From NCBI RefSeq assembly GCF_003334315.1, contig NZ_QOWR01000025.1: a DNA stretch of 64,000 bases; one strand, 5' to 3'. A program made the position numbers and the translations under genes. This DNA is from Escherichia coli (GTDB lineage: Bacteria > Pseudomonadota > Gammaproteobacteria > Enterobacterales > Enterobacteriaceae). The notes under the pieces were generated by a model. The model searched no databases and was not told where the DNA came from. It saw nothing but the letters and a program-made list of their open reading frames with translations. Shown one piece after another: positions 4,570 to 4,690 of this stretch; position 1 is the first letter of the stretch, and the number at the start of each line of letters is the position of its first letter.

Positions 4570-4690
4570 AATGCCTTATCCGCCTTAAGGTATGAGGGGG
4601 GTTGTAGGCATGATAAGACGCGCCAGCGTCGCATCAGGCGTTGAGCACCATTGCCGGATGCGGCGTAAACGCCTTATCCGGCCTACAAAA
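4570..4690. repeat. REP/BIME cluster (at least two REP palindromes in opposite orientation)
   Basis: Sequences gcctgatgcgacgctggcgcgtcttatcatgcctaca (inverted) and gccggatgcggcgtaaacgccttatccggcctac match the E. coli REP consensus; lies between convergent yaeF and nlpE. Confidence 0.85.

Follow-up and report, generated by a model that had tools for sequence, protein, structure and literature searches.

We found that REP16 of E. coli K-12 MG1655, an already catalogued element, fills the gap between yaeF and nlpE, whose reading directions converge, and that REP16 is a decayed chimeric (“atypical”) BIME. In K-12 the sequence reads, in order, half Y, linker, Z2, S, Y, L, Z1 stump and flank; nearly the whole gap is occupied, and a BIME-2-type unit (Z2, short linker, Y) and a BIME-1-type unit (Y, L, Z1) have the Y palindrome in common. 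The joint explanation that we find best, and in which we have high confidence, is that REP16 is such a decayed chimera and that its REP hairpins mark the 3′ ends of both convergent transcripts.

Genomic context and identity of the element

Unless MG1655 is named, coordinates refer to the window, that is, the whole 64,000-nucleotide stretch of DNA analysed, and its features are collected in Table 1. A 401-base query across the site matched K-12 strains with 100% identity, and the gene order proS - yaeF - nlpE - arfB - yaeQ is that of MG1655 in reverse orientation; relative to MG1655 the window is reverse-complemented, and an MG1655 coordinate equals 220741 minus the window coordinate. The genes yaeF (plus strand, end at 4562) and nlpE (minus strand, end at 4762) converge on a gap of 199 bp, and the REP units are extragenic and 3′ of genes, lying between the two stop codons. 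About 60% of REPs are found between convergent genes (Harris et al., 2026, bioRxiv 10.64898/2026.03.23.713779).

The DNA is the same as REP16 of MG1655 (100% identity), an element listed under that name and as convergent by Harris et al. (2026, Table S16); the earlier note, which had placed a BIME or REP cluster between convergent yaeF and nlpE, was correct. Our description extends an annotation of REP16 in the style of “2 REP sequences”, which gives no idea of the L linker or of the outer units that have decayed. The RefSeq record of MG1655 has zero repeat features anywhere, even at the BIME in the fhuB-hemL gap, and is thus uninformative on REP annotation.

The start of yaeF differs between the mechanical ORF list (3684, 292 aa) and the equivalent of RefSeq b0193 (3738, 274 aa). 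Several E. coli genomes (S3, XJ6.1, 23CRST007 and SK6988) have the gene annotated as a pseudogene with a frameshift, and E. albertii has no copy of it between proS and nlpE; for these reasons it looks dispensable and often decayed. Elsewhere in the window, Rfam matches above the gathering score were obtained for CssrA, t44 and the HtrA 5′ UTR thermometer.

Table 1. Features of the yaeF-nlpE gap and of the remainder of the window (window coordinates)
Feature	Position	Strand	Evidence and remarks
yaeF	3738..4562	+	ORF list; RefSeq b0193 at 216179-217003 (MG1655); 3′ end towards element, stop codon 41 nt before Z2
Half Y remnant (GTAAATGCCTTATCCGCCTTA)	4567..4587	+	3′ half of a Y-type REP, 5′ half missing; 18/21 identity to intact Y
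Tail-to-tail linker, Y remnant to Z2 (AGGTATGAGGGGGGTT)	4588..4603	.	Read from sequence
Z2-type REP, intact	4604..4639	-	Consensus with 1 mismatch (ATCATGCC for ATCAGGCC); second hairpin of naRNA4 match
S-type linker, head-to-head, Z2 to Y	4640..4652 (13 nt)	.	Aligns to linker of naRNA4 covariance model
Y-type REP, intact	4653..4686	+	Consensus with 1 mismatch; overlap of the convergent transcripts' 3′ ends mapped here
BIME-1 L linker, diverged copy	4687..4723	+	BIME-1 and L-only profiles; IHF-like core ATTCAAAATGTTG at 4700-4712
Z1-type REP stump, 9 bp (TCTGGCCTG for GTAGGCCTG)	4724..4732	-	Alignment of spacer forms
Probable outer BIME-1 flank (TTTTGCGTTTGT...TCTCAAG)	4733..4756	+	Consensus of 53 BIME-1 copies
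nlpE	4762..5472	-	ORF list; RefSeq b0192; 3′ end towards element, stop codon 75 nt from Y unit
CssrA (RF02798)	29947-30056	-	Rfam, 136 bits; rpsB-tsf gap
t44	30895-30981	-	Rfam, 83.5 bits; upstream of rpsB
HtrA 5′ UTR thermometer	39852-39897	-	Rfam, 77 bits; upstream of degP
Second BIME, Y	47153-47186	+	fhuB-hemL gap (convergent in MG1655)
Second BIME, linker	47187-47201		Tail-to-tail, 15 nt
Second BIME, Z2	47202-47237	-	fhuB-hemL gap

Two intact REP palindromes in opposite orientation

The claim that at least two REP palindromes lie here in opposite orientation is borne out by a scan against the REP consensus, which both units match. The Z2 unit, an imperfect palindrome of about 36 nt, agrees with GCCTGATGCGACGCTGGCGCGTCTTATCAGGCCTAC, the Z2 reference sequence used by Durrant 2024, at all but one base (0 such matches expected), and the Y unit, an imperfect palindrome of about 34 nt, agrees with GCCGGATGCGGCGTGAACGCCTTATCCGGCCTAC and its CTAC tail, likewise with one mismatch. 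Neither search gave any match in 100 dinucleotide-preserving shuffles of the window, and the sole further consensus matches in the 64 kb are those of the second BIME (47153-47237). Upon folding, the Y hairpin has a predicted energy of -21.3 kcal/mol (z = -4.9) and the Z2 hairpin one of -15.1 kcal/mol (z = -3.3); alternatively, on either strand, Y and Z2 pair with each other in a single long hairpin whose energy is -43 to -47 kcal/mol and whose z is about -5 to -6. The Rfam family naRNA4 (RF02564), which has the form Y-linker-Z2, matches the minus strand at 4607-4683 with 92.8 bits relative to a gathering score of 59.5; its score on the plus strand is 47.3 bits.

Does the element then encode a naRNA4-like non-coding RNA, that is, a Y-linker-Z2 transcript of ~77 nt that would bind HU, bridge cruciform DNA and condense the nucleoid? 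The minus-strand match above the gathering score points that way, as do the descriptions of naRNA4 from REP325 and of its binding to HU (Qian et al., 2015, PMC4550694), but RF02564 models the generic Y-Z2 repeat and any BIME-2 unit will consequently match it. Moreover, one unit is present between yaeF and nlpE versus six in REP325, a scan for promoter-like sites in the spacer gave none, and Harris et al. (2026) reported that REP325 and the naRNAs had no measurable effect on chromosome compaction and that REP-REP contacts were unseen, so that a nucleoid role is now disputed even for the founding member of the family. We consider an RNA gene of this kind very improbable.

Remnants on either side of the intact pair

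Upstream of Z2, the half Y differs from the consensus of the Y 3′ half at three positions, and no match of that quality occurred in 100 shuffles. The linker that follows it corresponds in position to the tail-to-tail linker of the second BIME and is of similar length.

For the region downstream of Y we assembled a reference set from sites in other genomes at which a REP tail is followed by GTGCNAATTCAA. The Escherichia and Pseudocitrobacter sites in this set all represent one module, namely Y, a linker of ~36 nt, an inverted Z1 and a conserved flank, which is how a BIME-1 is built (Ton-Hoang, 2012, PMC3333891). Fifty-three distinct Y-L-Z1 copies, taken from genomes of Escherichia and Pseudocitrobacter other than this one, were made into a profile that matched 4651-4734 with E = 6e-20, and a profile of L only matched 4689-4714 with E = 5.9e-5 and had no other significant match in the 64-kb window. 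The seed pattern was drawn from the yaeF-nlpE locus, so its 11 fixed bases match by construction; independent of the seed are the recurrence of the pattern elsewhere in a fixed context and the agreement of the adjoining linker positions. When the 63 bases 3′ of the Y unit were searched by BLAST against E. coli genomes totalling 28 Gb, the orthologous locus alone was returned, the query being too short and diverged for a search of that size.

Alignment of the spacer forms revealed that Z1 has undergone a clean 22-bp deletion in K-12, whereas S3, R6 and ET650 have it intact. Beyond the stump, the alignment to the BIME-1 profile extends to GGCCTG, and the 53-copy consensus after Z1 reads AATTTTGCGTTTGTCATCAGTCTCA, with which K-12 has the 12-mer TTTTGCGTTTGT in common. 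When the outer flank was searched for alone, as a profile or as a pattern, nothing significant was found at 4733-4756, and we regard that stretch as a probable outer BIME-1 motif. The limits first proposed for the element, 4570-4690, do enclose the REP pair, but the right-hand one is too short: BIME-derived sequence runs from ~4567 to ~4756. Similarly, the opposite-orientation pair proposed as its content stands, although it is part of a larger decayed chimera instead of a simple pair.

The presence of an L linker bears on the possibility that the element would act as a protein site at the level of DNA, with gyrase on Y and Z2 and IHF on L relieving or insulating the positive supercoils between the convergent units. 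Its position between convergent genes would suit such a role, gyrase cleavage sites are over-represented in BIME-2s with Y preferred (Sutormin, 2019, PMC6379681), and the L linker of BIME-1s often has an IHF site (Ton-Hoang, 2012, PMC3333891). However, the strong gyrase sites are multi-copy BIME-2s such as those of sucC-sucB and tldD-yhdP (Sutormin, 2019) whereas the unit here is single, and neither nlpE nor yaeF is named in those Topo-Seq supplementary files of that study that were searched, whose tables may list coordinates only. The L copy is also diverged and its Z1 partner deleted, and the predicted IHF core ATTCAAAATGTTG has one mismatch to WATCAANNNNTTR, a quality of match that occurs in the window at the rate of chance (47 matches versus 47 expected). 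Family resemblance makes such binding plausible, but on balance we think it doubtful that gyrase or IHF chiefly accounts for the element.

Our collection of Y-L-Z1 sites led to two side observations. E. albertii and Escherichia sp. MOD1-EC7003 have tandem arrays of Y-L-Z1 with three to four copies per locus (L013, 1302-1858; L065, 11744-12314; L067, 2705-3264); BIME-1 is usually described as single-copy (Ton-Hoang, 2012). In addition, perfect enterobacterial Y-L-Z1 modules are present on short contigs labelled Desulfosporosinus, Collinsella and Alkalicoccobacillus (L015, L060 and L062), and these BIME-1 modules in unrelated phyla are likely assembly contamination by Escherichia-like DNA.

Relationship to the known classes of BIME

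BIME-2s consist of z2 and y with a short linker S, typically in tandem copies; BIME-1s have a single Y and a single Z1 on either side of a long, conserved L linker, often with an IHF site; and atypical BIMEs are chimeras combining y, z1, z2, L, S, s, l and r, in multiple copies (Ton-Hoang, 2012). REP16 resembles BIME-2s such as the REP325/naRNA4 units in having Y and Z2 opposite each other, head-to-head, with a 13-nt S linker and the 92.8-bit match, and the alternation of Y and Z2 with a short S is thus present. It departs from them in that BIME-2s typically have several tandem copies, whereas REP16 has a lone Z2-S-Y unit, accompanied by half a Y and fused to parts of a BIME-1. To BIME-1 (also RIB or RIP; Y, L with an IHF site, Z1) it is alike in its Y, its recognisable L, its Z1 stump and what is probably the customary flank outside Z1, but the K-12 copy has lost 22 bp of Z1, leaving 9 bp of a unit that other strains keep whole in the same spacer, its L has several changes from the consensus, and the IHF site is putative. 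Because both the tandem copies of a BIME-2 and the intact Z1 of a BIME-1 are missing, “atypical BIME” is the right label: a mixture of parts from BIME-1 and BIME-2 is precisely what the K-12 spacer contains, although atypical BIMEs have been described as multi-copy and the yaeF-nlpE element is single and partly decayed.

Variation of the spacer among E. coli genomes

To compare the spacer between strains we joined the final 150 bases of yaeF to the final 150 bases of nlpE as a query free of repeats, whose two halves lie at spacings that fall into few classes. It was matched in 5,423 of 5,426 complete E. coli genomes, and the genomes with each spacer form were then counted from targeted queries. 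The K-12 form (199 bp) is present in 1,919-1,920 genomes (35%) and the intact BIME-1 form, Y-L-Z1 (154/155 bp), in 1,883 (35%; possibly an undercount). A BIME-1 form with a 1,279-bp IS621 inside Z1 (about 1,432 bp) accounts for 694 genomes (12.8%), strain HS among them, and a REP-free form of 29 bp, TGAAAGCCGGAGAATGCTCCGGCTTTCAA, for 522 (9.6%); the latter is a perfect hairpin with a 12-bp stem and a predicted energy of -24 to -27 kcal/mol. There are also a hybrid form that lacks the Y unit (173 bp, ET650) and, in one strain, SK6988, a form of 1,585 bp with IS1397 in the Y loop. The earlier note had suggested that copy number may differ from strain to strain, and the content of the spacer does differ, with at least six forms among the 5,426 complete genomes. 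That BIME content at a given locus varies is known (Ton-Hoang, 2012).

Examples of the 29-bp hairpin, with its AAAGCCGGAG aatg CTCCGGCTTT core, are found in XJ6.1 (L003, 414-442) and at L079 (2209-2237). A simple terminator scan left this form unflagged, its T-run being too short for the rule. Outside E. coli, E. albertii has a 42-bp gap between proS and nlpE with a GC-rich hairpin. In Citrobacter rodentium the locus has a different neighbour, and in Salmonella the contigs carrying nlpE stop at that gene. Because the REP-free form and E. albertii keep a strong hairpin in the same place, these comparisons support the idea that a hairpin between yaeF and nlpE would be the common denominator of the forms, and that it may be the hairpin itself that matters.

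The variation in the spacer also settles the standing of two ORFs in the gap, 4592..4798 (68 aa) and 4641..4832 (63 aa). Both are in the mechanical ORF list and might on that account encode small proteins, but both pass through REP units and on into nlpE in antisense, the start codons of the two (4592 and 4641) lie in linker sequence specific to K-12, and the start regions are missing from the BIME-1, hairpin and IS-bearing forms, i.e., from about two thirds of genomes (~65%). RefSeq has no annotated gene there. They are almost certainly not coding, and their dismissal as spurious in the earlier note was right.

Insertion sequences in the REP units

IS621, an element with a bridge-RNA recombinase, is inserted in Z1 at the same junction in all 694 genomes that carry it here. 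On the REP strand this junction, ATCAGGC/CT/AC, is the published natural target of IS621, ATCAGGCCTAC, the core of which is CT (Durrant et al., 2024), and the transposase gene follows nlpE and is read in the same direction. Examples are OkiPb01711, 23CRST007, Res13-Lact-PEA14-20 and HS (L004, L005, L006 and L076), in which the insertion is at the equivalent of ~4724-4732. In SK6988 (L074, 2640-4224), IS1397, an IS3-family element annotated with a frameshift, interrupts the loop of the Y-REP, where 3 bp, AAC, appear to have been duplicated; that IS1397 inserts specifically into palindromic units is known from a reference cited by Ton-Hoang (2012). REP units in other strains are thus landing sites for REP-specific insertion sequences, IS621 in Z1 and IS1397 in the Y loop. 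The K-12 spacer, in contrast, carries neither: the Z1 target of IS621 is deleted, and the corresponding sequences of its Y (ATCCGGCCTAC) and Z2 (ATCATGCCTAC) each differ from the target by one base.

Transcript ends and the role of the hairpin

Evidence that the element coincides with transcript ends comes from Table S16 of Harris et al. (2026), a list of 306 bidirectional terminators taken from an earlier 3′-end study. Row 15 places the overlap of a bidirectional terminator at MG1655 216053-216093 and prints its sequence as UUUGUAGGCCGGAUAAGGCGUUUACGCCGCAUCCGGCAAUGG; the entry was detected in both log and stationary phase, for arfB:nlpE:yaeF:yaeQ and with the label REP16 (Harris et al., 2026). 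Converted to window coordinates this is 4648-4688, exactly the Y unit. We take the study behind the table to be, probably, that of Ju et al. (2019). The simple scan returned no intrinsic-terminator-like site in the K-12 spacer (4563-4761), and the REP hairpins are therefore the only strong structures between yaeF and nlpE.

The element probably lies within the 3′ untranslated part of both transcripts, and the GC-rich REP hairpins, Y above all and with Z2 helping, would mark the ends of the yaeQ-arfB-nlpE and yaeF transcripts on opposite strands. Most likely they would do so both as a two-way stop to transcription and as a block to 3′-to-5′ exonucleases, and the best-supported mechanism is most likely one in which the Y hairpin, aided by Z2, defines and protects the 3′ ends of both transcripts. 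The route to these ends, be it termination or exonuclease trimming, is something we infer, as is any effect on the expression of yaeF and nlpE. No U-run follows the Y hairpin on either strand, and for that reason the ends may arise by Rho-dependent termination beyond the hairpin, after which the transcripts would be trimmed as far as Y. REP325 is known from experiment as a partly Rho-dependent terminator and mRNA stabiliser, and REPs between convergent genes are associated with higher expression of both, while mRNAs with terminal REPs have no general difference in half-life (Harris et al., 2026).

A question arising from the variability of the locus is whether the element does anything at all. 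It may be argued against a functional reading that the role of this copy, REP16, comes down to a single row of a genome-wide table. Moreover, with 9.6% of genomes REP-free at this place and 12.8% having IS621 inside, the data fit an element that is dispensable or replaceable and whose regulatory effect is incidental to a selfish repeat. Is it, then, a selfish relic without function, REP/BIME DNA that was spread by the REP-associated transposase (RAYT/TnpA-REP) and is tolerated because a position between convergent genes makes it harmless, the transcript ends at the hairpin being a by-product? REPs have been linked to Y1 transposases that cleave and recombine BIMEs (Ton-Hoang, 2012), two of the four original units have decayed, and the locus exists in at least six forms, among them the REP-free (522 genomes) and IS-interrupted (694 genomes) ones. 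Nonetheless, the two intact units are near-perfect copies of the consensus with one mismatch each, the K-12 spacer has no other terminator and the 3′ ends of both transcripts have been reported on Y (Harris et al., 2026), and a strong hairpin is kept by every form of the locus. We therefore view a purely selfish relic as rather unlikely, although it is a reading to be taken seriously. A selfish origin and an acquired role are compatible and may coexist.

Implications

REP/BIME elements have been known for ~40 years and there is nothing new in kind at this locus. For annotation, the value of our analysis is that two ORFs are artefacts and that the whole 199-bp gap is derived from repeats. The locus is also a clean natural allelic series, comprising a REP-free hairpin, a BIME-1, a chimeric BIME and forms interrupted by IS621 and IS1397, with which one could gauge the contribution of REPs to 3′-end formation between convergent genes, a matter that is still debated.

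The product of nlpE is a lipoprotein that activates the Cpx envelope-stress response. Did the different spacer forms also bring about differences between lineages? They might set different 3′-end formation, read-through and stability of nlpE, such that lineages would differ in Cpx surface sensing and IS621 would be coupled to envelope stress; we offer this as a speculation with little probability of being right. If it were true, a non-coding repeat polymorphism would underlie Cpx differences between E. coli lineages, and read-through from nlpE would couple the IS621 recombinase gene, together with its non-coding ends, to envelope stress.
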